Shown in pieces: positions 3,764-63,990 of a stretch of 64,000 bases of DNA (the first letter of the stretch is position 1; the number at the start of each line of letters is the position of its first letter). The position numbers and the translations under genes are program-made. The DNA is from Patescibacteria group bacterium (GTDB lineage Bacteria; Patescibacteriota; UBA1384; XYA2-FULL-43-10; 1-14-0-10-43-13), in contig JBBTQI010000003.1 of the NCBI GenBank assembly GCA_038078835.1, forward strand, positions 2,196 through 66,195, written 5' to 3'. The notes under the pieces were generated by a model that ran no database searches, had not been told where the DNA came from, and worked only from the letters and a program-made list of their open reading frames with translations.

Positions 3764-5110
3764 TTAATTTTTGCCGGTCAATGGGGAACTGCTAATAGTG
3801 CCGCCGCCGAGGACAACCTCCCTGTCATAAAACACCGCCGCCTGGCCGGGAGTAATAGCCCGGATCGGGAGATCAAACCGAATTGTTAAATCAAAGTTTG
3901 GCGAGATGCTCGTATCGAGACTTGACGAGATATTGTTCGAAGCCTCAAGCTGAGAACCATAAACCATTGCCGGCTCTGCCGGACTTCGGTATCTTATCTT
4001 TACGCCGACCTTAATCGGAAGTTTAGGAACTTCGCCGATCCAGTGAACATTACTAACTTTGGCTTCATCTGAATACAAATCATCCTTATCGCCAACGTAA
4101 ATTTCGTTCTTCTTAACATCTTTACCAATAATATAATACGGCCCGCCGCCATCTTTGATATCAAAACCATGCCGCTGGCCAATAGTATAATACCAAGCCC
4201 CGTCATGCTCCCCTAACGTACGACCGTCGATGCGCTTTACCAAGCCTTTCTTCGGTTTAATGTAGTCTTTTAGAAATGACTTCATTTTGAGAGGCCCGAT
4301 AAAGCAGACTCCCTGGCTATCTTTCTTTTCAGCCGTTGGTAAATCAAATTTCTTAGCCAGTTCCCGAACCTCCGGCTTGGTATAATCGCCAATTGGAAAA
4401 AGAGTGCGTTCTAAGTGGCGTTGTTTAAGGGTGTAGAGAAAATATGATTGGTCCTTATTCTTATCAACCGCCTGGCAAAGTTCATAAATGAACGACGAAC
4501 CACCTAACGACGAACAACGAATATCATTATCCTCACCCCTGCCCTCTCCCGTCACACCAGGAGAGGGAGTTCCTTCTCCCTCTGGGAGAAGGTTAGGATG
4601 AGGGTTGTGAATCTGTTGTCCATTTGTCTGCTGTCCATTTATGACATTTATGCGAGCATAATGTCCCGTGGCCACATAATCAGCCCCTTCGGCCATGGCT
4701 TTATCAAAAAACAAGCCGAACTTGATCTCCTTATTGCACATAATATCCGGGTTGGGGGTAATTCCAGCCTTGTAAGCCTCCAGCATGTATGTTGCGACCT
4801 TTTCGCCGTACTCTTTGGTAAAGTCCCAGGTCAAGAGCGGAACGCCCAGCTTGGCCGCAACTCTCAAAGCGTCCCGACGCTCCTCTTTCCAAATGCAACC
4901 GGGGACCGCCGGGTTGGGGACTGTCGCCCATGGCGACTGTCCCCTTGACTTCGGACTTTTATCCCCCGTAGCCTCGGCGGAGGGGGACCAAAACTTCATA
5001 AACACGCCCACGACAAAATAGCCCTGTTCTTTCAGCAAGACCGCCGCAACAGAGCTGTCCACCCCGCCGCTCATCGCCACATAAACCTTTTTCTGCTTCT
5101 TCGTATCCAT
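3764..5110 (-). CDS. mnmA: tRNA-specific 2-thiouridylase MnmA, carrying in-frame repeat insertions
   Basis: PP-loop YVAMSGGVDSSVAAVLL. Start moved to the internal Met MDTKK (rc ATG at 5108-5110). About 449 aa versus a typical ~360 aa, because of in-frame palindromic repeat insertions at 4531-4608 and 4917-4945. Confidence 0.85.
   Translation of the reverse strand: MDTKKQKKVYVAMSGGVDSSVAAVLLKEQGYFVVGVFMKFWSPSAEATGDKSPKSRGQSPWATVPNPAVPGCIWKEERRDALRVAAKLGVPLLTWDFTKEYGEKVATYMLEAYKAGITPNPDIMCNKEIKFGLFFDKAMAEGADYVATGHYARINVINGQQTNGQQIHNPHPNLLPEGEGTPSPGVTGEGRGEDNDIRCSSLGGSSFIYELCQAVDKNKDQSYFLYTLKQRHLERTLFPIGDYTKPEVRELAKKFDLPTAEKKDSQGVCFIGPLKMKSFLKDYIKPKKGLVKRIDGRTLGEHDGAWYYTIGQRHGFDIKDGGGPYYIIGKDVKKNEIYVGDKDDLYSDEAKVSNVHWIGEVPKLPIKVGVKIRYRSPAEPAMVYGSQLEASNNISSSLDTSISPNFDLTIRFDLPIRAITPGQAAVFYDREVVLGGGTISSSPLTGKN
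4531..4608. repeat. REP-like palindromic element, family 1 (CCCTCACCCC..CCCTCTCCC / GGGAGAGGG), composite copy inside mnmA
   Basis: cctcacccctgccctctccc...ggagaggg...ccttctccctctgggagaagg. It is in frame in mnmA (encodes HPNPLPEGEGTPSPGVTGEGRG). Confidence 0.6.
4917..4945. repeat. Palindromic element, family 3 (GGGGACTGTCCCC pair), inside mnmA
   Basis: ggggactgtcgcccatggcgactgtcccc; the same element occurs in iscS and nifU. Confidence 0.6.
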
Positions 5111-6834: not shown

Positions 6835-8088
6835 ATGAAACACATTTATCTTGATCATTCAGCTACAACGCCGCTCGATCCGAAGGTTCTTTCGGCGATG
6901 ATGCCGTACTTCGGCGACAACTTCGGCAATCCGGGATCCTTGCACTCGTTCGGTGTTGAGACCAAGAAAGCAATCAACGACGCGCGCAAAAACATTGCCG
7001 CTTTTTTGGGCTGCGATGAATCCGAGATTATTTTCACCTCTGGTGGATCAGAATCAGACAATCTGGCCATTCGAGGACTCGTATCACGTAGCAAAGGGGA
7101 CTGTCCCCTAAAGGGGACTGTCCCCGAGAACGCCAAGAAGCCCCACATTATCACGTCGGCGTTTGAGCACAAGGCTGTTTTGGATACAGTTAAATCGCTT
7201 GAAAGGGAGGGAATAATCAAGGCTACCTATATTAAACCGGGCGCGGACGGAGTTATTAAAGTTGATGATATTAAAAATGCCATTCGCGATAACACTGTTT
7301 TAGTCTCGATTATGTACGTCAATAACGAGATCGGCACCATCCAGCCAATCCGTGAAATTGGTAAGGTCATTTCCGGGCTTAATTCTAAAATCGAAAATCG
7401 AAAATCAAAAATCTATTTCCACACCGATGCCGTTCAGGCCACGGAGTTCTGTCCGATAAATGTCCGTGATCTCGGCGTCGATCTGCTCTCCCTCTCCGCC
7501 CACAAAATCCACGGTCCCAAGGGCGTTGGCTTACTCTATGTCAAATCAGGCACACTTCTCAAGCCAGAGATTACCGGCGGCGGACAGGAGAGAGGGTTCC
7601 GCGCCGGAACGGAAAACGTTCCCGGTATTGTTGGGTTTGCTAAAGCAATATCATTAATTAGCAGCTCAAATCCCAAAGTCATACCCCCCCTTTCTAAGGG
7701 GGGGCGAAGAGAGGTTGAGAAGCTTCGCGACAGACTTATCGACGGTATCTTGGAGCGGATTCCCGGCTCGATTTTGAATGGTGATCGTGACCATCTGGCG
7801 CCGCATATTGCCAATATCAGTTTTATTAATGCCGAAGGCGAGGCTATCCTTTTAAACCTCGATTTTCTGGGTATTGCTGTTTCGACCGGTTCGGCCTGCA
7901 CTTCGCGCACGCTTGAGCCCAGCCACGTTTTAACCGCGATGGGTATCCCGCCCGAGCAAGCCCATGGTTCTATTCGGTTCTCCTTGAGCCGGAACACAAC
8001 CGAGGCAGAGATTGATCGAGTACTGGATGTCCTGCCGGGTATCATTGAAAAATTGAGGACAATGAGCCCATTTGACACAAATGGATAA
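6835..8088 (+). CDS. iscS: Cysteine desulfurase (IscS/NifS family), carrying in-frame repeat insertions
   Basis: PLP-lysine motif SLSAHKIHGPKG and a C-terminal active-site Cys region (GSACTS). In-frame insertions at 7097-7125 (GGGGACTGTCCCC pair), a microsatellite at 7383-7409 (aaaatcgaaaatcgaaaatc) and the palindrome cccccctttctaaggggggg near 7683. Confidence 0.9.
   Translation: MKHIYLDHSATTPLDPKVLSAMMPYFGDNFGNPGSLHSFGVETKKAINDARKNIAAFLGCDESEIIFTSGGSESDNLAIRGLVSRSKGDCPLKGTVPENAKKPHIITSAFEHKAVLDTVKSLEREGIIKATYIKPGADGVIKVDDIKNAIRDNTVLVSIMYVNNEIGTIQPIREIGKVISGLNSKIENRKSKIYFHTDAVQATEFCPINVRDLGVDLLSLSAHKIHGPKGVGLLYVKSGTLLKPEITGGGQERGFRAGTENVPGIVGFAKAISLISSSNPKVIPPLSKGGRREVEKLRDRLIDGILERIPGSILNGDRDHLAPHIANISFINAEGEAILLNLDFLGIAVSTGSACTSRTLEPSHVLTAMGIPPEQAHGSIRFSLSRNTTEAEIDRVLDVLPGIIEKLRTMSPFDTNG
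7097..7125. repeat. Palindromic element, family 3 (GGGGACTGTCCCC TAAA GGGGACTGTCCCC), inside iscS
   Basis: Direct and inverted pair; encodes GDCPLKGTVP in frame. Confidence 0.6.
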
Positions 8089-8257: not shown

Positions 8258-8710
8258 ATGGAACAGTATTCAAAAACAGTCTTAGAGCACTTTTATAACC
8301 CGCGCAATGTCGGGGAAATTGCCGATGCCGACGGCGTTGGCGAGGTGGGCAATCTTCGCTGCGGCGATGTTATGTACGTCTATATCAAAGTAGAAAGGCG
8401 AAAGGCGAAAGGCGAAAATGGTGCAAGGGGACTGTCCCCAAAGGGGACTGTCCCTGGATTTGCCGAAGAAGAATACATTAAGGACATTAAATTTAAAACC
8501 CTGGGCTGTGCGGCGGCCATTGCTTCGACCAGCATTATGACCGAGATGGTTCGAGGTATGAGCTTAGACGAAGCAATGAGGATCACGCGCGACGACATCA
8601 ATGATGCCCTGGGAATTCTCCCCAAACAAAAATACCACTGCTCTATCCTCTCGGCCGACGGTATCCATAAGGCAATCGAAAATTACAGGGCAAAAAAGCA
8701 ATTTAGCTAG
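8258..8710 (+). CDS. nifU: Fe-S cluster assembly scaffold (IscU/NifU N-terminal domain)
   Basis: FYNPRNVGEI...GDVMYVYIKV...LGCAAAIASTSIMTEMV conserved Cys ligands. Start at the ATG at 8258 preceded by AGGAG. Carries a family-3 repeat and a (aaggcg)n microsatellite in frame. Confidence 0.85.
   Translation: MEQYSKTVLEHFYNPRNVGEIADADGVGEVGNLRCGDVMYVYIKVERRKAKGENGARGLSPKGTVPGFAEEEYIKDIKFKTLGCAAAIASTSIMTEMVRGMSLDEAMRITRDDINDALGILPKQKYHCSILSADGIHKAIENYRAKKQFS
8427..8453. repeat. Palindromic element, family 3, inside nifU
   Basis: ggggactgtccccaaaggggactgtccc; encodes RGLSPKGTVPG. Confidence 0.6.
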
Positions 8711-11087: not shown

Positions 11088-11540
11088 CTACCCTTCCAGC
11101 ATCTCGCTGATCTTGTCGCGGATCTCCTCCAATCGCTTCCTCTCGGCTAACAGTAATCGCTCATCAACCGAATAACCACGTAGTAACAAATTCTTCAGCG
11201 TCTTTGTTGCCCAGATCCGAAACAGAGTCGCTTTTTGGGAATTTACTCGATATCCGACAGACAAAATCGCGTCTAGATTGTAAAATTTAGTCTTATATTT
11301 CTTTCCGTCTTTGGCAGTACATTCCAAAATGGAATGAACTGATTTTTCTTCGAGTTCACTTGATTTAAAAACATTATGCAAGTGCTTTGCAATTGCTGGC
11401 TGATTTACGCCAAAAAGATCAGCCATTTGATTCTGGTTTAGCCAAAGAGTCTCATCCTTCAGGCGAGCCTCAATATAGACCTCACCCTTATAGACCTCAC
11501 CCTTCGGTGAAGTGTAAATGGCAATTTGATTCACTTCCAT
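11088..11540 (-). CDS. RhuM-family (virulence-associated DNA-binding) protein
   Basis: LWLNQNQMADLFGV...KYKTKFYNLDAILSVGYRVNSQKATLFRIWAT resembles the RhuM family consensus. Confidence 0.55.
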   Translation of the reverse strand: MEVNQIAIYTSPKGEVYKGEVYIEARLKDETLWLNQNQMADLFGVNQPAIAKHLHNVFKSSELEEKSVHSILECTAKDGKKYKTKFYNLDAILSVGYRVNSQKATLFRIWATKTLKNLLLRGYSVDERLLLAERKRLEEIRDKISEMLEG

Positions 11541-11549
11541 AGCACAATT

Positions 11550-13013
11550 TTAGCCCAACTCCCAGTTGGCGTCTACTTTAATCTTGCCCCAAGAAGAAAC
11601 ATTGTTTCGCAGAACGTGATAGTAGGCCGCCAGACCAATCATCGCCGCATTATCGCCGGTTAAAGCTATTGGCGGTACCAGAAAATCTACTTTCGACTTT
11701 TCACTTTCAACTTTCAACTTGCTTCGAAGGTGTTTGTTTGCAGCAACGCCGCCGGCCAAAACAACGGTTTTGGGGGTAAATTGTTCAACCGCTCTCATTG
11801 TTTTAGTTACCAGCACATCAACAACTGCATCCTCAAAGGCAGTGGCAATCTCCGCTTTATCGATATCATCAAGACCCTCACCCCTACCCTCTCCCAAAGG
11901 GCGAGGGAGTTTTAAGGAAATCCGACGCTTAACTTCCAGAAGAACAGCTGTCTTTAAACCGGAGAAAGAAAAATTAAAAGTGCCATTGTTAATAATCGGC
12001 CGAGGAAGAACTAATTTGCTTAAGGCTGGAGGCTTAAGGCCGACCTTCGACAAACTCAGGTCGCCCTGAGTGGAAATTGAATGGGCGGAGGCCACATCCT
12101 TCCCGCCTTCAGCCTTCGGCCTTGGGCCTTGGGCTGATTCGCCTTTAGGATCATTTCTAAATTGCTCCGCCAATTTAGAAATGATCGGTCCCCCGGGATA
12201 ACCAAGACTAAGCAACTTGGCCACCTTGTCAAAAGCCTCTCCCGCCGCGTCATCCAGGGTCTGGCCGAGAGTCTCATACTGATCGTGACCCTTCATCAGA
12301 ACAAGCGAAGTATGCCCGCCAGAAACCACTAAAGCCAAAATTGGAAATTTTGGCTCGTCCAAGGCCAAAGGCCCAAGGTCTAAGGTCTTTTCGTCTCGGC
12401 CTTCGACCTTCGACCTTCGACCTTCGACATTTACTCCGCTTAAAGCGGAGTAAATATGTCCTTCGATATGGTTGACGGGAATAATCGGCTTATCCAGCAC
12501 GTAAGCGATCGATTTGGCGGCGTTAAATCCAATCAAAAGAGACCCGATCAACCCCGGTCCCGCCGTTACCGCGATGTGGGTAATCTCATTTTTTAGATAA
12601 TCCTGACTTTCCTGAAAATTACTACCCTCACCCCAACCCTCTCCCTGAAAGGGAGAGGGAGTATTAAAGGTTCCATCGCCCCGTTTCACGGGGAGAGGGT
12701 TAGGGTGAGGGGTTATAATAGATCCGTTTCCTTTATTTTGCATTTTGCATTTTGCATTTTGATTTTTAGCCTGTAAGAGTGCTTGTACGATTACAGGCGT
12801 TATCGCTTCCATATGCGCCCGGCTGGCCACCTCCGGCACTACCCCGCCCGTCTTGGCATGGAGATCGATTTGAGAGCTCACCACATTCGACAAAATGACA
12901 GGCCGAAAGCCTGTCATCCCGGACTTGATCCGGGATCCATCTTTTCCTACCCCAATAACCGCCGCAGCGGTCTCATCACAAGACGACTCGATGGCAAGAA
13001 TTAGAGGGGACAT
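11550..13013 (-). CDS. tsaD: tRNA N6-adenosine threonylcarbamoyltransferase TsaD (Kae1/YgjD), strongly expanded by in-frame repeat insertions
   Basis: LILAIESSCDETAAAVI, HIEGHIYSA, and GGVAANKHLR. Start at the internal Met MSPLILAIESS (rc ATG at 13011-13013). About 487 aa versus a typical ~340 aa. It contains family-1 repeats (11875-11910, 12625-12712), family-2 repeats (12085-12135, 12352-12430) and a (cattttg)n microsatellite at 12738-12762. Confidence 0.85.
   Translation of the reverse strand: MSPLILAIESSCDETAAAVIGVGKDGSRIKSGMTGFRPVILSNVVSSQIDLHAKTGGVVPEVASRAHMEAITPVIVQALLQAKNQNAKCKMQNKGNGSIITPHPNPLPVKRGDGTFNTPSPFQGEGWGEGSNFQESQDYLKNEITHIAVTAGPGLIGSLLIGFNAAKSIAYVLDKPIIPVNHIEGHIYSALSGVNVEGRRSKVEGRDEKTLDLGPLALDEPKFPILALVVSGGHTSLVLMKGHDQYETLGQTLDDAAGEAFDKVAKLLSLGYPGGPIISKLAEQFRNDPKGESAQGPRPKAEGGKDVASAHSISTQGDLSLSKVGLKPPALSKLVLPRPIINNGTFNFSFSGLKTAVLLEVKRRISLKLPRPLGEGRGEGLDDIDKAEIATAFEDAVVDVLVTKTMRAVEQFTPKTVVLAGGVAANKHLRSKLKVESEKSKVDFLVPPIALTGDNAAMIGLAAYYHVLRNNVSSWGKIKVDANWELG
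12625..12712. repeat. REP-like palindromic element, family 1, composite nested palindrome inside tsaD
   Basis: ccctcaccccaaccctctccc-tgaaa-gggagaggg ... ggggagagggttagggtgaggg. The outer arms at 12625-12645 and 12692-12712 are reverse complements. Confidence 0.65.
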
Positions 13014-13032
13014 TAGAGGGGACGGTTCTCTT

Positions 13033-13683
13033 TTAGGCACAGTTTTTCGCTTTCTTTGATTTTCTGGCCACCTTTTCCTGTTCTCGGTATCTTTGATAAT
13101 TACTGCCCCAGATATTTTTACCATAAGTTTGCTCAATAATTTGGTCTACCACCAGTTTTTGATAGCTAATTTGTCTATCTTGTGCATCCTGTCCGATTGC
13201 CTCATAAAGAAAATCGGGGGTGATTAATAAATCTGTTTTACCTCGAACGTAATGGAGATAGCTTGAGTATTTGTAATCTTCCGGCCTTTCTACTAATCTC
13301 GCCCTGACCGGATTAAGTTCAATATACTTTCCGCACTGGATAAAGTAGGCGTCCTTACCGACCGCCTGACTTTTATAGCGATCTTGCCAAAAGTGGCCAA
13401 TCCAATCATAGGACTGCCGATAGTGTTGGAAATAGGCCAAATTTAACTTTTTCATAAAAGTCGAAAAGTCGAGAGCTTTCTTGGTTTGAATTAAAAAGTG
13501 AGTGTGGGTAGGCATCAAGCAATAATGATAAAGGTCAAAAGGATGTTCTGATTTATACCTGCCAATAAGTTCTAAAAAATACAAATAATCATCATCTGAC
13601 CTGAAAACCTTATTCCGGTTGTTGCCCCGGGTCATTATATGATAAAAACTCTGAGATAAAAGAAATCGTCGTGTTCTTGGCAT
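13033..13683 (-). CDS. REP-associated tyrosine transposase (RAYT, IS200/IS605 TnpA-like HUH enzyme)
   Basis: HUH motif CLMPTHTHFLIQ, plus WQDRYKS and YIELNPVRARLV with the catalytic Tyr region, 216 aa. A 12-bp direct repeat (cattagagggga x2) at 13001-13024 lies just downstream. Confidence 0.7.
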   Translation of the reverse strand: MPRTRRFLLSQSFYHIMTRGNNRNKVFRSDDDYLYFLELIGRYKSEHPFDLYHYCLMPTHTHFLIQTKKALDFSTFMKKLNLAYFQHYRQSYDWIGHFWQDRYKSQAVGKDAYFIQCGKYIELNPVRARLVERPEDYKYSSYLHYVRGKTDLLITPDFLYEAIGQDAQDRQISYQKLVVDQIIEQTYGKNIWGSNYQRYREQEKVARKSKKAKNCA

Positions 13684-13789
13684 AACGTAAGTTTACTAGA
13701 ATTCAGTAAAAAGCGAAATATCGAGATAAAAAGAGAACCGTCCCCTTAAGCTCTTAAGCTTATTAACAAAAATCCCTATAAAAATCAAA

Positions 13790-13820
13790 TGGAGCGGCCG
13801 ATCTTCGATCGGCCGCTCCA
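13790..13820 (-). terminator. Perfect GC-rich hairpin downstream of the GC-rich gene at 13857-14639
   Basis: ggagcggccgatc-ttc-gatcggccgctcc, a 13-bp stem, followed on the minus strand by an A/T-rich tract. Confidence 0.4.
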
Positions 13821-13856: not shown

Positions 13857-14639
13857 CTAGGAAGCAAGGACTCCCAGAGGGCGAACCGCCGCGCGGCGCC
13901 AGCGGCCGTCGGCAAAGTTGTAGCTGACGCGCACGAGGCCGCCGTAGTTCGAATCGCCACCGACGAGGCGGTTCGACGCGTCCCCGAAGAACTCCTCGTA
14001 CCAGACCCACGTATCGGTCTGGCCGTCGTTCGCACGGGGGCACATGGCGGGGTATGCCTGCGGGACGATGTTCGCCTCGATAATGGTCTCGAGGCGCATC
14101 CGCTGAGCCGGGAGGCCGAGCAGCTCGGCGACCACCGAACGGAGGTGGTTGTCCCACTCCACGGGCGAGACACCGAAGCGGCTCTCCTGAGGGCCGTACT
14201 CGTACTTGACGAGCTTGCCATCTGCCCGAAGGCGGGCGATCAGCTTGCCCAGGAAGTTGGCGTCGTTTGCGAACATCTGCCGCCCGCCGTCGTACGACGG
14301 CTTGCAACGCGTGTCCACCAGGGCAACGATGCCCTCGAGGCCAACTTCGGTCATCGAAGCCAGCTCGCCGCTGGCGTTGCGCCGCTTGATGTTGCCGGCG
14401 CCGATCTGTTCCCAGAACCAGAACTCCGGCTTCTTCTTCCAGCCCTTGAGGCTGGTCTTAGCGGTAAGCACGAGCTTGGGCAGGAAGTGCACCTCGAGAC
14501 CGAGGGCATTCCAGGCCTTCACGCGCTCTTGGCCTGTGGCCTCGAGCACCTGGCGCATCAGCGCCAGGTTTTGTGTCTGGCCGAAGAATGCCTGGTGGCA
14601 TTTCTCTTCGGCGGCAATGATCTTGCCAATCCAATCCAT
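13857..14639 (-). CDS. Hypothetical protein on a second ~65% GC island (probable horizontal acquisition)
   Basis: Start at the internal Met MDWIGK (rc ATG at 14637-14639). GC-rich versus its flanks and free of repeats. Its C-terminal half shows faint similarity to the 5279-6208 protein (TFVVNEYG versus TWVWYEEFFG; ERIIEV versus ETIIEA). Confidence 0.5.
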   Translation of the reverse strand: MDWIGKIIAAEEKCHQAFFGQTQNLALMRQVLEATGQERVKAWNALGLEVHFLPKLVLTAKTSLKGWKKKPEFWFWEQIGAGNIKRRNASGELASMTEVGLEGIVALVDTRCKPSYDGGRQMFANDANFLGKLIARLRADGKLVKYEYGPQESRFGVSPVEWDNHLRSVVAELLGLPAQRMRLETIIEANIVPQAYPAMCPRANDGQTDTWVWYEEFFGDASNRLVGGDSNYGGLVRVSYNFADGRWRRAAVRPLGVLAS

Positions 14640-14774
14640 GGTCGTTCTCCTCTCTGAAACGTTGCGTTTATGATAGCGCGAACGCTTGCAGCGTACCACG
14701 AGTTGATAGTCTAAGACTATACACTATTTTCCTGTCACTGTCAATGTTTCTGGACTTGATATTTTCTGCTATCC

Positions 14775-15719
14775 TTGAAGTTAATGTCCACCTCTCTTTT
14801 CCAAACCCCCGAGTGGGGGGATTTTAAGTGCCAAACCGGCTGGAGCAAGCAGCATCGCCTTGACGGTATTTTGGTGCTGGAGAAAAAATTACCCCTTGGA
14901 CGGACGATGCTATATTCACCGATGATCAATGAGGCTCAAGGCCGGAGGCTCAAGGCCGGAGGCTTTTTGGAACAGATCAAAAACATCGCTCAAAAGCGCA
15001 ATGCCATATTTTACCGGGTGGAATTCGACACCCCGCTCCCAACCTTCGACCTTAAGCCTTCGACCTTCGGCGCCCGTCGGGCTTTCGAGGAGATGCAGCC
15101 GGAGCATACGCTGATTCTCGATATCACCCAGAGCGAGGAAGAGATTCTGGCTCAGATGAAACCAAAGGGGCGGTATAACATTAAAGTGGCCGAACGAAGC
15201 GGAATCGAGATAACGGAGTCAACTGATCCCAAGGGGCCGGAACTCGACAGCTTTTACACACTCTACGAGTCTATGGCCAAGCGGCAAAGAATTTCCTATC
15301 GAGATAAAAAATACTTCGAGGCTCTACTTGAAATCCTGGGCAAAAAGGATTATGCTCGACTGTACGATGCCTCTGTTAATATTGATGGCAAAACTACTAC
15401 CCTGGCATCAGCCATTGTCGGGAACTTTGATCGGCGGGTGACCTATCTCTTCGGCGGCTCAAGCAATGAACACCGTAATTTGATGGCGCCCTATCTCCTG
15501 CATTGGCAGATAATCAAAGATGCTAGAGCGCAGGGCTGCACTGAATACGACTTGTTCGGTATTGCCCCCAATGATGACCCCAAACATCCCTGGGCCGGCG
15601 TAACGCGGTTCAAAAAACAGTTCGGCGGCCGCGAGGTCCACCTGGCCGGAAACTGGGATCTGGTCTTTAGACCGGTTGAATATCAATCATTCAAGATAGT
15701 CGAGAAAATCCGAAGATAG
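14775..15719 (+). CDS. FemAB-family peptidoglycan interpeptide-bridge aminoacyltransferase
   Basis: FemAB-like architecture: LILDITQSEEEILAQMKPKGRYNIKVAER, then ...YLFGGSSNEHRNLMAPYLLHWQIIKDARAQGCTEYDLFGI. Carries two family-2 repeat insertions (14936-14966, 15041-15072). Confidence 0.8.
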   Translation: MKLMSTSLFQTPEWGDFKCQTGWSKQHRLDGILVLEKKLPLGRTMLYSPMINEAQGRRLKAGGFLEQIKNIAQKRNAIFYRVEFDTPLPTFDLKPSTFGARRAFEEMQPEHTLILDITQSEEEILAQMKPKGRYNIKVAERSGIEITESTDPKGPELDSFYTLYESMAKRQRISYRDKKYFEALLEILGKKDYARLYDASVNIDGKTTTLASAIVGNFDRRVTYLFGGSSNEHRNLMAPYLLHWQIIKDARAQGCTEYDLFGIAPNDDPKHPWAGVTRFKKQFGGREVHLAGNWDLVFRPVEYQSFKIVEKIRR

Positions 15720-17363: not shown

Positions 17364-18491
17364 TCACTTTAATCCTCTCCCTTTGAAGGGGAGAGGGGAG
17401 GGGGAGGGTTTGGCTTGTGAGCGTTTGCCGTGAAAAGCTTGGTGAACTTCGCGCAGATGCTGATCGGTAACATGGGTATAGACTTGAGTGGTGGTGATGG
17501 AAGAGTGGCCCAAAAGCGACTGGACGCTCCGAACATCGGCGCCGTTAATTAAGAGATCGGTGGCAAAGGAGTGGCGCAAGGTGTGCGGCGATACCTTTTT
17601 AGTGAGACCGGCTTTCCTGGCCGCTTTCTCGACAATACGCTGGACACTTCGAACCGCGAGACGCCCGCCCCGGGGGGAAGAGAAAAGGGGCTCATTATCA
17701 CTTAAGGCCGGAGACCTAAGGCCGGAGACCAAATTGCTATTACCTTCAGCCTTCAGCCTTAGACCTTGGGCTGATTTGCCTTCAGCCTTAGACCTTCGGC
17801 CTTGAGCTGATTCGCCTTGGGCCTTGGGCATGGGGCCTTCGGCATAATTCTTCAACCAATATTTTGCGCTCTCTGAAAGAAAAACGACCCGAAGCTTCTT
17901 GCCCTTACCCAACACGGCAATCTCACCTCGTTCGAGATTTATCTGGTCCCGGTCAAGGGCGACCAACTCCGAGACTCGCACCCCCGTTGAAAAAAGAACC
18001 TCCAGAATCGTCCGATCGCGCAAACCGGAAGTTTTAGCAACATCGACAGACTCTAAAACGCTTCTAAGCTCCTCCGTTTCCAGAAAACTGATCTCGCGAT
18101 CCCCCGTTTTAGCGATAACAACCTTCTCCGGCGGTAAAGTCATAATCCCCCGCCAAGAGAGATAGCGCAAAAAAGCCCTAAGGGCTAGGGCATGATAATT
18201 TTGTGTCGTCTTCTTAAGCTCTTGCCCCTTCTTGTCGCCCAATCGATTGATGTAAAGCCGGTAGTGCCGCACCGTCTCTTGGGTAATCATTTCTGGCATA
18301 AGGCCGGAGGCCACATCCTTTTCGCCTTCGACCTTAGGCCTTTGGCCTTCGGCAACATAATCCTTCAGCCACGTTAAAAAACGATTAAGGTAGCGGTCAT
18401 ATCCGGCAATCGTTAAAGTTGACTGGCCCTTGTCCAGCTCGCAATACTCCAAAAACTCGCGTTTTAATTGAAATAAATCATTCATTATCAT
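17364..18491 (-). CDS. xerD: Tyrosine recombinase XerC/XerD family, carrying in-frame repeat insertions
   Basis: HTLRHSFATDLLINGADVRSVQSLLGHSSITTTQVYTHV (R..HxxR..Y catalytic box). Two family-2 repeat insertions (17697-17835, 18298-18360). The C-terminal tail and stop codon lie inside a family-1 palindrome (17361-17410). Confidence 0.85.
   Translation of the reverse strand: MIMNDLFQLKREFLEYCELDKGQSTLTIAGYDRYLNRFLTWLKDYVAEGQRPKVEGEKDVASGLMPEMITQETVRHYRLYINRLGDKKGQELKKTTQNYHALALRAFLRYLSWRGIMTLPPEKVVIAKTGDREISFLETEELRSVLESVDVAKTSGLRDRTILEVLFSTGVRVSELVALDRDQINLERGEIAVLGKGKKLRVVFLSESAKYWLKNYAEGPMPKAQGESAQGRRSKAEGKSAQGLRLKAEGNSNLVSGLRSPALSDNEPLFSSPRGGRLAVRSVQRIVEKAARKAGLTKKVSPHTLRHSFATDLLINGADVRSVQSLLGHSSITTTQVYTHVTDQHLREVHQAFHGKRSQAKPSPSPLPFKGRGLK
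17697..17835. repeat. GC-rich palindromic element, family 2 (AGGCCGAAGGC / GCCTTCGGCCT theme), inside xerD
   Basis: aaggccggagacctaaggccggagacc...ccttcagccttcagccttagaccttgg...ccttcggccttgagctgattcgccttgggccttgggc. The translated segment KAQGESAQGRRSKAEGKSAQGLRLKAEGNSNLVSGLRSPALSDN recurs in uppP and tsaD. Confidence 0.6.
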
Positions 18492-19261: not shown

Positions 19262-20170
19262 ATGATAACTATGCAAGAATTCTTTCAGTCTCTGGTAATC
19301 GGCGCCATCCAGGGCATCACCGAATTTCTGCCGATCTCCTCGTCGGGGCACCTGGTCTTGGTCCCTTATCTTTTTGGTTGGGACTATCAGGGTCTCTCAT
19401 TTGATGTCGCCCTTCATTTTGGCACCGCCCTTGCTGTTATTGCCTACTTCCGGCGGGACTGGATAAAGATCATCGCTAAAGGCCTAAGGCTGAAGGCTGA
19501 AGGCAATAGCAATTTGGCCTCCGGCCTTAGGCCTCCGGCCTTAGGCTTTTCCGCTTCCAGCCCTAGGCCTCCGGCCTTAGGCAAAAATTTGCTGTGGCAA
19601 ATTTTAATCGCTTCCATTCCGGCGGCGATTGCCGGCATCTTGATCAACGACTATGTTGAATCAACTCTCCACTCTCCTCTCTTGCTCGCCGCTAACCTGA
19701 TTATCTTTGGCTGGCTTCTCTGGTATGCCGACAAACGAGCTGCCTTCGGCCTTTGGCCTTCGGCCTTCGCCCATTCGATTTCCACTCAGGGCGATCTGAG
19801 TCTATCGAAGATCGGCCTTCGGCACGCCTTGTTTATTGGTCTGGCTCAATCTCTTGCCCTGGTCCCCGGCGTCTCCCGCTCCGGCATCACCATCACCGCC
19901 GCTCGCAGCCTCGGCCTGAATCGGGAAGCGGCAACCCGCTTCTCCTTTCTCCTCGGTACTCCGGCGATTGTCGGCGCCTTTCTCTATAAATTCAAGGATA
20001 TCGATATTGCCCTAATTAACCTTCCCTTTATTGTTGCCACACTGGCGGCAATGGTCTTTGGTTTTCTTGCGATCAAGTATTTGCTACAATATTTAAGAAA
20101 GAGCGATTTCTCCGTTTTTTTGTGGTATCGAGTCGCACTAGCCATAATCGTGCTCTTCGGAGGGAAATGA
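19262..20170 (+). CDS. uppP: Undecaprenyl-diphosphatase UppP/BacA, carrying in-frame repeat insertions
   Basis: N-terminus LVIGAIQGITEFLPISSSGHL, and a C-terminal GVSRSGITITAA motif. Family-2 repeat insertions at 19478-19582 and 19742-19772 encode LRLKAEGNSNLASGLRPPALG and FAHSISTQGDLSLSKIGL. Both peptides also occur in xerD and tsaD. Confidence 0.85.
   Translation: MITMQEFFQSLVIGAIQGITEFLPISSSGHLVLVPYLFGWDYQGLSFDVALHFGTALAVIAYFRRDWIKIIAKGLRLKAEGNSNLASGLRPPALGFSASSPRPPALGKNLLWQILIASIPAAIAGILINDYVESTLHSPLLLAANLIIFGWLLWYADKRAAFGLWPSAFAHSISTQGDLSLSKIGLRHALFIGLAQSLALVPGVSRSGITITAARSLGLNREAATRFSFLLGTPAIVGAFLYKFKDIDIALINLPFIVATLAAMVFGFLAIKYLLQYLRKSDFSVFLWYRVALAIIVLFGGK
19478..19582. repeat. GC-rich palindromic element, family 2, inside uppP
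   Basis: aggcctaaggctgaaggctgaaggc...ggcctccggccttaggcctccggccttaggc. Confidence 0.6.
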
Positions 20171-30130: not shown

Positions 30131-31189
30131 ATGTCCCAATTTTCAACTCAACAATCAATCGACATTGCCGGGATTAAGGAGGGTGTCGTCATCCTCAAGA
30201 ATGGCGGCTACCGCCTGATCTTTTCGGTGGCGGCAATTAACTTTGCCCTAAAGAGCGAGCAGGAACAGAACTCGATTATTTTCCAGTACCAAAGCTTTTT
30301 AAACTCCCTTCACTTCCCCATTCAGATCGTGATGAGATCCAAGCGTTTAGACCTCGACCCGTATTTGCAAAAAGTCTCCAAGCTGGCCGGAGATCAGCAA
30401 AACGAGTTATTGCGAATTCAAACTGAGGATTACGTCGACTTTGTCGGCAAACTCATCAATATCGCCAACATTATGAAAAAGACCTTCTACGCCGTCATCC
30501 CCTACCAGCCCCTCTCTCTCCAAAACACGGGCGCTCTGGGCAAACTGTTCCGGCGAGAAAAAACGGTGACAGAGCTTAAGATCTCTGAAACGGAGTTCAA
30601 TCATAATATCCAGGAGCTTAAACAGCGCGCCGGCGTTGTCGCCAGCGGCCTGGGCTCGATGGGCCTGCGCTGTGTTCAGCTCTCAACCGAGGAGGTCATT
30701 GAGCTCTTTTATCAAGTCTACAACCCCGAAGAAGCCGGAACGGAGAGAGTCAGCGATGCCGAGAGCCTGACCTCGCCCGTTGTCATTCACAAAAGCGAAG
30801 CGCCCGAAGAAGCCGGAGGTCAAAGGCCGGAAGGTGAAGGCGATAATACGGCCGAGAGCCTAAGGCCGAAGGCCGAAGGGGGTCAAGCTGAAGGCGAAAG
30901 GCCGGAGGCTGAAAGCCAAAGAGAAGAGGTAATTGACAATTCGGCCTCGGTACTGGCGCAACAAAAAGAACAAGCTATGCTCCACCGCCAGGAGATGATG
31001 AAGGAGGGAGAGCGCAATATAGCCCAAGGCCAAAGGCCGGAGGCTGAAGACGACAACACCCCCAATCCGCCACCGGCAACGCCCGAACCAATAACTCAAA
31101 CGCCGAATCAAACCACTACTCAAACAAATCAGCCCGACAACTCGAACCCCGAGGAACAGGATGAAACCCAACAGCACAAGCCCCAATAA
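30131..31189 (+). CDS. VirB4/TraC-family ATPase, N-terminal fragment (split gene) with a low-complexity repeat-derived tail
   Basis: DIAGIKEGVVILKNGGYRLIFSVAAINFALKSEQEQNSIIFQYQSFLNSLHFPIQIVMRS matches the VirB4 N-terminus of Gram-positive conjugation systems. The C-terminal ~130 aa (EAPEEAGGQRPEGEGDNTAESLRPKAEGGQAEGERPEAE...) are encoded by family-2 repeats at 30812-30918 and 31021-31048. Confidence 0.55.
   Translation: MSQFSTQQSIDIAGIKEGVVILKNGGYRLIFSVAAINFALKSEQEQNSIIFQYQSFLNSLHFPIQIVMRSKRLDLDPYLQKVSKLAGDQQNELLRIQTEDYVDFVGKLINIANIMKKTFYAVIPYQPLSLQNTGALGKLFRREKTVTELKISETEFNHNIQELKQRAGVVASGLGSMGLRCVQLSTEEVIELFYQVYNPEEAGTERVSDAESLTSPVVIHKSEAPEEAGGQRPEGEGDNTAESLRPKAEGGQAEGERPEAESQREEVIDNSASVLAQQKEQAMLHRQEMMKEGERNIAQGQRPEAEDDNTPNPPPATPEPITQTPNQTTTQTNQPDNSNPEEQDETQQHKPQ
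30812..30918. repeat. GC-rich palindromic element, family 2, inside the virB4 N-terminal fragment
   Basis: ggaggtcaaaggccggaaggtgaaggc...gcctaaggccgaaggccgaaggg...gaaaggccggaggctgaaagcc. Confidence 0.55.
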
Positions 31190-34749: not shown

Positions 34750-36018
34750 ATGAAAAATGATATTTATCAATATCTGAACGCGCGGATATATTTGGCGCTC
34801 TTTGTGATGGTCTCGGCTCTCTTTGGCCTCTACTGGTTTGCGACTCACTCCTACCTCACCATCAAGGTCACGCCGCCGGACGCTATGGTCACGATCAATA
34901 ACGCGCCGGTCTCGCTCTCCGCCGCCGGCAAAATAAAACGGGCTCTCGCGCCGGGCGCCTACTCGCTTCGGATTGAGGCTGACGGCTACGTCGGCTATAT
35001 CGAGGAGGTTGCCCTCAAACGAACTCAGCGCAAAACCGTCTCGGCCAGCCTCACGGAGGCGCCAAAGGTCCAGACTCTGGCGGAATCAGCGAAATTCCTC
35101 TCCGCCGGGCCGGACTTTAACACCATCCACTATCTGGGCGATGATGGCAGAACGCTCTACCGCGCCAAGACAACACTGGAAAACGGCGAGGTCAAACTCA
35201 AAGAGCACCTCCCGATAACCGAGCCGCGGTTCTCCGGCCTTGAGGAGATTGTCTGGTCGCCCGGCAAGGAGCTGGCTCTCCTGCGCAAGAGCGAGGGCAT
35301 CTATCTCTTCGATTTTAAAAAATACGATTTTATCAATCAAACCGAGACATTGTGGGCCAAGAGCGCCGGCAGTCTTGCCTGGTCGCCGGACAACTCCAAA
35401 ATCGCCTATTATTACGCCGACGACAAGGAGAAATCATTAATCTTTACTAATATTGCCAACACCGAACCGGTACGGGTGGCTAATCTGGCCGAGATGAATA
35501 TCGTCAATCCGATTCTGCGCTGGTCGCCGGACTCCGAATGGCTCCTTGTCATACCTCGTAATACTTTTTCATACGATTTAAGCAAAGTTTATGCCTTTAA
35601 CGCCTACAGTCGCTCCTTTATCGAACTGACGGAAACGGGCAGCCAGCTTGACGCCAGCTTCTCGCCGGACGGCAACAGAATCATCTACGGCACGTATTCG
35701 GAGCTCTCCAGCAATCCCGTCACTTCTCTAATATCGATTATGGATAAAGACGGCGCAAACAAACGCTCGCTTAATTTACGCGCCGATATCAGCCGGATGG
35801 CCTGGAAAAAAGACAGTAAAACCTTAGTCGCGGCGACTTATAATCCCTCAAGTCACAAAGAGTCGCTCTTTGGCTTTGACACCGAGAAGAAGCAGAAGAT
35901 TGATTTCTCCGTTAATGCTCTTGATTCGGGTTACATCCGCACTCTGGCCATTTCTGACGACGAAAAGATCATCATTTTTGAGTCGGGGAACGGGATATAC
36001 GGCATCGCAATAGAGTAA
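34750..36018 (+). CDS. Membrane-anchored PEGA-domain plus TolB-like beta-propeller protein
   Basis: TM helix, a PEGA-like LTIKVTPPDAMVTINNAPV...GAYSLRIEADGYV, then repeated WSPD / FSPDG motifs (WSPDNSKIAYY, RWSPDSEWLLV, FSPDGNRIIYG). Confidence 0.5.
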   Translation: MKNDIYQYLNARIYLALFVMVSALFGLYWFATHSYLTIKVTPPDAMVTINNAPVSLSAAGKIKRALAPGAYSLRIEADGYVGYIEEVALKRTQRKTVSASLTEAPKVQTLAESAKFLSAGPDFNTIHYLGDDGRTLYRAKTTLENGEVKLKEHLPITEPRFSGLEEIVWSPGKELALLRKSEGIYLFDFKKYDFINQTETLWAKSAGSLAWSPDNSKIAYYYADDKEKSLIFTNIANTEPVRVANLAEMNIVNPILRWSPDSEWLLVIPRNTFSYDLSKVYAFNAYSRSFIELTETGSQLDASFSPDGNRIIYGTYSELSSNPVTSLISIMDKDGANKRSLNLRADISRMAWKKDSKTLVAATYNPSSHKESLFGFDTEKKQKIDFSVNALDSGYIRTLAISDDEKIIIFESGNGIYGIAIE

Positions 36019-36245
36019 ATCTCAAACAACAAGCACCAAATATCAAATAATTTCCAAATCACAAACCTCAAATAACAAATAAATTCCAGATTGCAATTAC
36101 CAGCTACAAAAGCGTTTGAAAATTAGAGATTGGGACTTGGAACTTATCTAAGATTTGTTATTTGGGATTTAAATTTTACTTGTGGTTTGGTGCTTGGTAT
36201 TTGAGGTTTCTCCGCTTTGGCGGAGAGGAGGGGTTTTGGCAACCG
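36019..36245. repeat. ~220 bp AT-rich MITE-like inverted-repeat element, copy 1
   Basis: ...caagcaccaaatatcaaataatttccaaatcacaaacctcaa...ttacttgtggtttggtgcttggtatttgaggtttctccgctttggcggagaggagg. The arms are imperfect reverse complements. It ends in a small hairpin plus GGAGAGGAGG. Confidence 0.5.
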
Positions 36246-54564: not shown

Positions 54565-54790
54565 ACCAAAAAATCCCAAATTACAAGCACCAAATAACAA
54601 ATAATTTCCAAATCACAAACCTCAAGTAATAAATAAATTCCAGATTTCAATTACTAACTACAAAAGCGTTGAAATTGAAATTAGAGATTGGAACTTGGAG
54701 CTTATCTGAGATTTGTTGTTTGATATTTGTAATTTACTTGTGGTTTGGTGCTTGTTGTTTGAATTTTCTCCGCCAAGGGCGGAGAGGAGG
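54565..54790. repeat. ~220 bp AT-rich MITE-like inverted-repeat element, copy 2
   Basis: Close to colinear with copy 1 (...acaagcaccaaataacaaataatttccaaatcacaaacctcaag...tacttgtggtttggtgcttgttgtttgaattttctccgccaagggcggagaggaggg). Its terminal GGAGAGGAGG acts as the SD for the ATG at 54795. Confidence 0.5.
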
Positions 54791-55629: not shown

Positions 55630-55673
55630 ATCCACCTGGAAGGTGAATGCGCCCAAACACCTTCCAGGTGGAT
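55630..55673. terminator. Conserved hairpin CCACCTGGAAGGTG-N12-CACCTTCCAGGTGG, copy 1 (terminator-like)
   Basis: atccacctggaaggtg aatgcgcccaaa caccttccaggtggat, directly after the stop of the 54795-55619 gene. Confidence 0.5.
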
Positions 55674-56538: not shown

Positions 56539-56586
56539 AACCCACCTGGAAGGTGTTTGGCCACACTCACCTTCCAGGTGGGTTGG
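56539..56586. terminator. Conserved hairpin CCACCTGGAAGGTG-N12-CACCTTCCAGGTGG, copy 2
   Basis: aacccacctggaaggtg tttggccacact caccttccaggtgggtt, between pilin-like genes 2 and 3 (downstream of the stop of gene 3 on the minus strand). Confidence 0.5.
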
Positions 56587-60518: not shown

Positions 60519-60562
60519 GCCCACCTGGAAGGTGAATGTGCTCAAACACCTTCCAGGTGGGC
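60519..60562. terminator. Conserved hairpin CCACCTGGAAGGTG-N12-CACCTTCCAGGTGG, copy 3
   Basis: gcccacctggaaggtg aatgtgctcaaa caccttccaggtgggc, downstream of the stop (60669) of the secreted paralogue gene. Confidence 0.5.
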
Positions 60563-63814: not shown

Positions 63815-63990
63815 GTTCAAAATCCCAAACAACAAATATCAAATAACAAATAATTTCCAATTTTCGAATTTCAAAAACTTTGGACTTTGGTAGTTGAAAT
63901 TTATTTGGGATTTGGTTTTTGGATTTTGTAATTTCCGAAACTTTGTTTTACAAAGTTTCGGCTGTTTCTCTTATAAACTTCGCAAACTCG
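63815..63990. repeat. Diverged third copy of the ~220 bp MITE-like element (upstream of the SBP gene start)
   Basis: aaatcccaaacaacaaatatcaaataacaaataatttccaa ... ttggatttggtttttggattttgtaatttccgaaactttgttttacaaagtttcgg. Shares the 5' arm words and the inverted structure with copies 1 and 2. Confidence 0.35.

Follow-up and report, generated by a model that had tools for sequence, protein, structure and literature searches.

A TIRYT-type RAYT gene within cognate terminal inverted repeats beside a palindrome-laden tsaD in a Patescibacteria genome

A Y1 HUH gene of the RAYT clade that lies next to a palindrome-laden tsaD in a Patescibacteria genome is of the TIRYT/TIRtron kind, a known kind of RAYT not previously reported from this phylum, and is not a classical REP-associated RAYT. 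Considered as a whole, the locus is very probably a TIRtron, a single-copy TIRYT-type gene within its own cognate terminal inverted repeats (TIRs), (A)GGGGACGGTTCTCTTTT, with the palindromes of tsaD unrelated to it. The locus places the largest RAYT group (Group 1/TIRYT) in Patescibacteria and Omnitrophota, and removes the RAYT gene as an explanation for the in-frame palindromes of the source genome. Two points are worth pursuing: a family-wide signature of end duplication, and a tsaD start codon built from such a duplication. Positions are those of the window, the whole 64-kb stretch of DNA that was analysed, and the features discussed are collected in Table 1.

Table 1. Features of the RAYT locus and repeats of the window
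Feature	Position	Strand	Basis or remark
RAYT-clade Y1 HUH gene (TIRYT-like), 216 aa	13033..13683	-	HMMs, alignment, fold match
5' TIR; gene strand = AGGGGACGGTTCTCTTTT	13729..13746	.	inverted-repeat search
3' TIR; gene strand = AAAAGAGAACCGTCCCCT	13017..13034	.	inverted-repeat search
3' junction tandem duplication; gene strand GTCCCCTCTAAT x2	13000..13023	.	repeat search
5' junction tandem duplication; + strand CTTAAGCT x2	13745..13760	.	sequence
tsaD, 487 aa, co-directional, immediately downstream of the RAYT gene	11550..13013	-	ORF, homologues
tsaD start codon ATG	13011..13013	-	sequence; public gene call uses same start
Terminator-like hairpin, 14-bp stem + T tail, ending the upstream GC-rich ORF	13790..13820	-	sequence
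tsaD insert: inverted pairs CCCTCACCCC..CCCTCTCCC/GGGAGAGGG	11873-11909, 12622-12712		
tsaD insert: inverted heptamer arrays	12016-12148, 12356-12430		
tsaD insert: TTTTGCA x4	12733-12762		
tsaD insert: two short palindromes	12895-12936		
GGGGACTGTCCCC doublets	4916-4944, 7096-7125, 8427-8455		in frame inside genes

The RAYT-clade protein and its terminal inverted repeats

The 216-aa product, which carries the peptide YHYCLMPTHTHFLIQ, had been described in an earlier note on this DNA as a Y1 HUH protein in the style of a RAYT, and that description stands. The profile searches the note proposed were both passed: the protein scores 68.8 bits against Pfam Y1_Tnp (cut-off 23) and 81.1 bits against the NCBIfam RAYT equivalog REP_Tyr_transpos (NF047646; cut-off 80), the latter a pass by 1 bit only. 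A Pfam search of this protein and 24 homologues at E<=1 returned nothing besides Y1_Tnp. Residues H60-T61-H62 (codons at nt 13498-13506) make up the HUH motif, and the catalytic-type Tyr is Y120 within KYIELNPV (codon at nt 13324-13326); H60, H62 and Y120 are invariant across the 24 aligned homologues. When PDB sequences were searched by profile, E. coli TnpA-REP (4ER8) was the best match at E 5.9e-7, and IS200-type transposases reached E about 0.07 only. The catalytic Tyr is kept in that alignment, where Y120 stands opposite the Tyr of DYIYINPV in 4ER8. An AlphaFold model of pLDDT 71, its C-terminus modelled at low confidence, again gave 4ER8 as top match in Foldseek (E 2.4e-7, TMt 0.71), followed by IS608 and ISDra2. 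By sequence and predicted fold, the protein thus classifies as a RAYT-clade Y1 HUH enzyme and not as an IS200 transposase.

Only one Y1 gene is present in the window, and no tnpB partner accompanies it. Its GC content is 0.384 against 0.499 window-wide, a difference that would fit acquisition from a relative of lower GC. The contig itself originates from metagenomes of Hainich groundwater. An exact look-up of the 216-aa product found no match. Public gene calls begin at Met17 (P0001, 200 aa), and the longer start that yields 216 aa is backed by homologues.

On either side of the gene stands one arm of a perfect 18-bp inverted repeat, which continues to 37 nt at 81% and is not mentioned in the earlier note. 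On the plus strand AGGGGACGGTTCTCTTTT reads at 13017-13034, with its complement at 13729-13746. The outer 12-mer of the 5' TIR starts 62 nt upstream of the RAYT ATG, and partial complementarity runs inward to 13710. The 3' TIR overlaps the TAA stop by 2 nt, and its partial complementarity reaches 13053, within the gene. The cognate 14-mer AGGGGACGGTTCTC has two copies in the 64 kb, both at the gene flanks, and a search of the window for degenerate TIR copies with at most 3 mismatches turned up only unrelated GGGGACTGTCCCC palindromes. Folding both flanks on both strands yielded no REP-like hairpin better than shuffled sequence, and the GTAG or GT[AG]G tag is absent from the flanks of the RAYT gene. 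Because these flanks have no hairpins of their own, the arms are terminal inverted repeats and not REPs. Of the inverted REP-like flanks suggested in the earlier note, the inverted cognate pair is therefore present (18 bp) and the REP hairpins are not. The TIR octamer GGGGACGG matches the GGGGWSAS consensus at 7/8 positions, with G, not A, at position 7. A consensus sigma-70 promoter was not found in a scan from the 5' TIR to the RAYT ATG.

A CGTC-tagged REP was tried as an identity for the motif AGAACCGTCCCC and rejected. Such REPs are short stem-loops with an unpaired CGTC tag at one end and are unlinked to a transposase gene (PMC3733652), whereas here the CGTC sits inside the paired arm and the arms, which are not stem-loops, flank a Y1 gene.

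The same arrangement recurs widely. Patescibacteria homologues at 60-75% identity are numerous, and a scan of one genome per species gave a set of 80 loci. Protein identity is 50-74% for loci in Berkel-, Gottesman-, Woese- and Saccharibacteria and CPR2, and 40-47% for those in Omnitrophota, Planctomycetes, Aminicenantes and Acidobacteriota. An inverted GGGGACG[G/C/T]T[T/A/C]C flanks the gene in 67/82 loci belonging to several phyla, most of which carry the exact 12-mer GGGGACGGTTCT, and the 5' motif copy lies 61-63 nt before the ATG across loci. That the 12-mer stays near-invariant while the protein drifts to 40% identity points to a putative recognition site of the enzyme. Further afield, a profile search of 1.84 billion representatives returned 1,167 clusters at E<=1e-30, among which longer relatives, at E 1e-40 to 1e-44, combine Y1_Tnp with Bac_DnaA_C, the domain architecture of subclass 2.1.1.

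Patescibacteria loci normally have two arms only, with occasional solo ends; a 135-nt TIR pair was seen once, at Patescibacteria locus L018. The site of the RAYT gene is fixed within each population and differs between genera: its neighbour is tsaD here, metK in L003, a DUF433/DUF5615 pair in L085 and hypothetical genes in L089. Paralogues from the same genome are 49-76% identical (11 pairs) and never near-identical. Hairpins of 40-60 nt, GGGGACG[G/T]TTCTAYTTTT-loop-AAAARTAGAA[A/C]CGTCCCC, are built from the motif in Omnitrophota and Planctomycetes; the gene has one on either side, and further copies are dispersed, reaching 12 per 20 kb in L069. These dispersed hairpins are a REPIN-like population.

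Dispersed hairpins of the Omnitrophota/Planctomycetes loci L069, L067, L074 and L056 bear copy-specific palindromic extensions outside GGGG...CCCC, such as gcgaaattGGGG..CCCCaatttcgc. Many of them resemble intrinsic terminators that work in both directions, with a stem between an A run and a T run.

The Pfam domain name, 'Transposase IS200 like', together with a cassette of defined ends found at different sites in different genomes, could suggest an ordinary autonomous IS200/IS605 insertion sequence, the outcome that the earlier note set against its own proposal. This is highly improbable. Against the IS200 equivalog NF033573 the protein scores 23.8 bits, short of the cut-off of 55, and the Tyr motif is YIELNP instead of Y---Q. 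The ends are TIRs without subterminal hairpins, tnpB is missing, the gene is single-copy in the window, and the divergence of same-genome paralogues differs from the near-identical copies of an IS200/IS605 element.

Palindromes of tsaD and of the window

The description of tsaD as repeat-laden proved correct. The product is 487 aa long against 348-400 aa in shorter homologues, Pfam finds its TsaD domain broken up into 4 stretches, and at least five different palindromic or heptamer-array inserts interrupt the gene in frame (Table 1). The peptide G-S-R/Q-IKSGMTG, encoded at 12895-12936, is common to the TsaD of the distant Patescibacteria P0122 and P0130, and other TsaD homologues have IPAFAGMT- or HSREGGNL-type inserts at the same loops.

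The central proposal of the earlier note was that the gene is a RAYT of the classical REP-associated type, which acts on the REP-like palindromes of tsaD and its neighbours and drives their in-frame spread. It has two arguments on its side: this is the only Y1 gene in the window and adjoins a palindrome-laden gene, and the GGGGACTGTCCCC palindrome resembles two TIR tips joined through one base and is tandem-duplicated like the TIR junctions. Set against these is the sequence of the inserts themselves, none of which has any trace of the conserved TIR motif. At least five unrelated palindrome families would have to be served, whereas each RAYT is specific for one REP family (PMC6006769), and subclass 2.1/Group 1 is reported as not REP-associated (PMC6006769, PMC5581495). 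Moreover, the families nearly vanish around genes of the same kind: the window holds 3 copies of GGGGACNGTCCCC, 11 of GGGAGAGGG/CCCTCTCCC and 9 heptamer arrays, and the corresponding counts in 1.15 Mb around 80 other RAYT-family members are 2, 3 and 0. Finally, other Patescibacteria TsaDs have different palindrome-encoded inserts at the same loops, so the in-frame palindromes are a lineage-wide feature that does not track the RAYT gene. Collectively, these data make the proposal improbable. By sequence comparison, the tsaD palindromes are not supported as substrates of the RAYT and appear to be elements unrelated to it. Since the RAYT gene is the only Y1 gene in the window, the driver of the palindromes would lie elsewhere in the genome or be of another kind.

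The GGGGACTGTCCCC doublets form a weak link between the RAYT gene and the palindromes of the window. They lie near an Aminotran_5 cysteine desulfurase gene and in a NifU_N gene. Their unit equals the TIR tips AGGGGAC and GTCCCCT joined via one T, and 2/3 doublets form tandem duplications of 16-17 nt; other RAYT loci have next to none of them. These doublets might be footprints of the enzyme, its targets, or repeats of a paralogue with a self-complementary tip (compare GGGGACGCTCCCC in L044).

Several further repeats were observed in the window. Inverted heptamer arrays of AAGGCYR/GCCTTSR occur at 12016-12148, 14932-15071, 17698-17844, 18295-18354, 19474-19583, 19739-19819 and 30811-31059, within several genes that include FemAB-like and tyrosine-recombinase genes; none is present in the 1.15 Mb of other RAYT loci. 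AT-rich palindromic elements of ~200 nt with arms 70-75% complementary are found in three copies (36016-36215, 54570-54773 and 63819-63874), as is a 40-nt hairpin, CCACCTGGAAGGTG-loop-CACCTTCCAGGTGG (55632-55671, 56542-56581 and 60521-60560). Between tsaD and valS lies a 150-aa RhuM/Bro-N-like ORF (11088-11540, minus strand). It covers only the first 70/252 positions of the RhuM profile and is thus probably a remnant of a mobile- or phage-derived gene.

Duplications at the repeat tips and the start of tsaD

Both ends of the element carry a short tandem duplication. At the 3' end the exact 12-bp repeat is ATTAGAGGGGAC, at 13000-13011 and 13012-13023, with a unit that consists of 6-7 nt of TIR tip and 5-6 nt of flank; the gene strand reads ...GAGAACC GTCCCCTCTAAT GTCCCCTCTAAT TCTTGCC. 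The 12-bp direct repeat that the earlier note placed at this flank is therefore real, though its phase was one base off, the unit given there ('cattagagggga') being exact in the second copy only. It belongs to the element's own end and has no bearing on REP spread. At the 5' end, the first copy of the duplication overlaps the outermost 2 nt of the TIR.

Two adjacent 12-mers are by themselves unremarkable, but junction repeats of this type come up in the family much more often than expected by chance. Duplications of tip plus flank are found at both ends of most Patescibacteria loci and also at solo ends, with examples in L009 (AGCGGCAGAGGGGACGG x2), L027 (CTATTAGGGGACG x2) and L028 (CCGTCCCCTAAAGGGTCCTGT x2.5). 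Of 247 non-redundant TIR tips, 21.5% have a close direct repeat of 10 nt or more across the junction, versus 0.8% of GC-matched random windows and 0.8% of GGGG-anchored windows (odds ratio 33-35, p<1e-46). The inner breakpoint falls in TIR nt 1-8 in 49/76 cases, with a sharp drop past nt 8. The repeat period lies anywhere between 6 and 30 nt, in most cases at 8-21 nt. An origin of the 12-bp repeat by target-site duplication was discarded: the sequences differ between the two ends, each duplication is one-sided, and the periods vary too widely for duplications of a target site.

The tip duplications were most likely left as scars when the TIR tip was processed again and again, and such a footprint has possibly gone undescribed so far. 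Their cause could be enzymatic nicking and rejoining, or replication slippage at a bound or G-rich tip. Because the breakpoints are spread over 8 nt with no single site, slippage fits as well as enzymatic cutting. One possibility, which we hold to be a serious one though short of probable, keeps the same element but has the duplications arise from slippage or template switching at a G-rich, structure-prone or protein-bound tip, with the tsaD ATG coincidental. In its favour, breakpoints are scattered within TIR nt 1-8 and periods vary between 6 and 30 nt, G runs end many repeat units, and duplications occur at solo ends kilobases from the RAYT gene of the same locus. A G run alone is insufficient, however, as GGGG-anchored controls reach only 0.8%; the breakpoints stop sharply after nt 8, the extent of the octamer conserved among TIRYT TIRs; and genomes with solo ends still encode the enzyme. 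That the GGGGACGG tip is instead an in-vivo hotspot of nicking and rejoining by the enzyme itself, which leaves duplications and made the ATG of the essential tsaD from one of them after the native 5' end had been displaced, is a somewhat unlikely reading. If it were true, the GGGGACTGTCCCC doublets inside iscS/nifU-type genes could be tip-to-tip footprints, and the duplications would represent the first natural footprint of Group 1/TIRYT catalysis. A reproducible tip duplication scar could in addition guide the mapping of cleavage sites.

The duplication reaches into the start of tsaD. Its ATG, 19 nt after the RAYT stop, straddles the repeat junction: unit 1 contributes its last two bases and unit 2 its first. 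TsaD homologues begin MxKKxIK-ILAIETSCDET and the protein here begins MSPL-ILAIESSCDET. The element thus abuts the conserved TsaD core, the native N-terminal codons have been lost, and TIR-tip sequence makes up the first four codons. An 'empty site' was sought through close tsaD relatives and none was found, the nearest TsaD being 52-54% identical (BLASTP).

A strong terminator-like hairpin stands just upstream of the element (Table 1), which suggests that transcription of the RAYT gene and tsaD probably starts inside the element's 5' region. The ORF that it ends (13857-14699, minus strand, 280 aa) has a GC content of 0.633 against 0.499 for the window and no Pfam match, and may be foreign DNA. 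Elsewhere in the family, a TATAAT-like box (e.g. GATATAATT) lies 7-15 nt before the RAYT ATG in L003, L007, L008-L012 and other Patescibacteria loci, in many of them at only about 7-12 nt; a box so close to the ATG suggests leaderless or near-leaderless RAYT transcripts.

We propose the following course of events for a TIRtron of this type. By analogy with TnpA-REP and IS608, the two TIR arms would pair in single-stranded DNA and the enzyme would recognize the stem foot GGGGACGG/CCGTCCCC. By the same analogy, Tyr120 and the HUH-bound metal would cut and rejoin DNA near the GGGGACGG tip. TIR binding and cleavage by the 216-aa protein are thus predicted from the example of these two enzymes only. 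The solo ends and miniature derivatives left behind suggest that the cassette moves or is transferred rarely. The motif has multiplied as REPIN-like hairpins in Omnitrophota and Planctomycetes, with no multiplication visible in the 64-kb window here. Repeated processing of the ends would have scarred both with tip-plus-flank duplications and, where the element abuts the conserved core of tsaD, the duplication junction would have come to supply the ATG.

Comparison with known systems

Three known systems come closest to this locus. With the IS200/IS605 transposases of IS608 and ISDra2 the protein has the Y1 HUH fold in common and, presumably, the chemistry of single-strand cutting and rejoining. 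It departs from them in the features weighed above: YIELNP where they have Y---Q, a failing HMM score, TIR ends where they have subterminal hairpins, and a gene that is not multi-copy.

E. coli TnpA-REP (YafM/RayT, 4ER8) is the best match in both sequence and fold, with HUH/Tyr geometry in common, although identity to it is only about 21%. Like TnpA-REP and the REPtron/REPIN systems of Group 2/3 RAYTs, the gene is flanked by inverted cognate repeats; it also has the class-2 Tyr motif of RAYTs, Y---NP (Y120 in YIELNP), and their low copy number without near-identical duplicates, being one Y1 gene in the window with paralogues at 49-76% identity. The REP hairpins with a 5' GT[AG]G tag that flank a classical RAYT gene are lacking, there being neither tag nor hairpin in either flank here. 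Unlike REPtrons and REPINs, the locus has no dispersed repeat population within the 64-kb window, where no extra copy of the cognate motif occurs, though dispersed copies or further paralogues may lie in the rest of the genome; the likeness to them in dispersed hairpin doublets of that motif is confined to the relatives in Omnitrophota and Planctomycetes.

The closest agreement is with TIRYTs, RAYT-like genes flanked by TIRs ('TIRtrons'), many of which share GGGGWSAS at a fixed distance from the gene (PMC3733652). TnpA-Y1 subclass 2.1 is Bertels Group 1 and has been equated with the TIRYTs of Di Nocera et al. 2013 (PMC6006769); its key motifs are NH[VYF]H, W[EQ], YIELNP and a C-terminal SS (Table 1 of PMC6006769). 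Group 1 is the largest RAYT group and has no clear REP association (PMC5581495). The motifs found here, (T/N)HTH, FWQDR, YIELNP and YSS, agree with those of subclass 2.1, with THTH in this protein and NHTH or NHVH in homologues. To our knowledge, subclass 2.1/Group 1/TIRYT proteins have no known substrate, biochemical activity or function.

The likeness to a TIRtron extends over protein, ends and copy number. The protein has the RAYT-like Y1 core with the YIELNP Tyr motif, WQ and the C-terminal SS. Long TIRs bracket the gene at a fixed distance in place of REP hairpins, as they do in 67/82 loci, and open with an octamer that fits GGGGWSAS at 7/8 positions. The gene occurs in few copies, paralogues within a genome have diverged, and repeat families of the TIR are moderate or absent.

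Several differences set the Patescibacteria genes apart from the TIRYTs described. The protein is shorter, at 216 aa against a median of 238 aa in TIRYT/subclass 2.1, and the C-terminal DnaA-like or helix-turn-helix domain (Bac_DnaA_C, HTH_23, HTH_28) is missing. The octamer GGGGACGG deviates from GGGGWSAS in the G at position 7. Junction tandem duplications are not described in the TIRYT papers (PMC3733652, PMC6006769), and hosts among Patescibacteria/CPR and Omnitrophota are not covered in PMC3733652, PMC6006769 or PMC5581495. The 12-mer here is invariant across phyla. As the Patescibacteria clade lacks Bac_DnaA_C, we file these genes as a short, DnaA_C-less branch of the subclass 2.1 kind.
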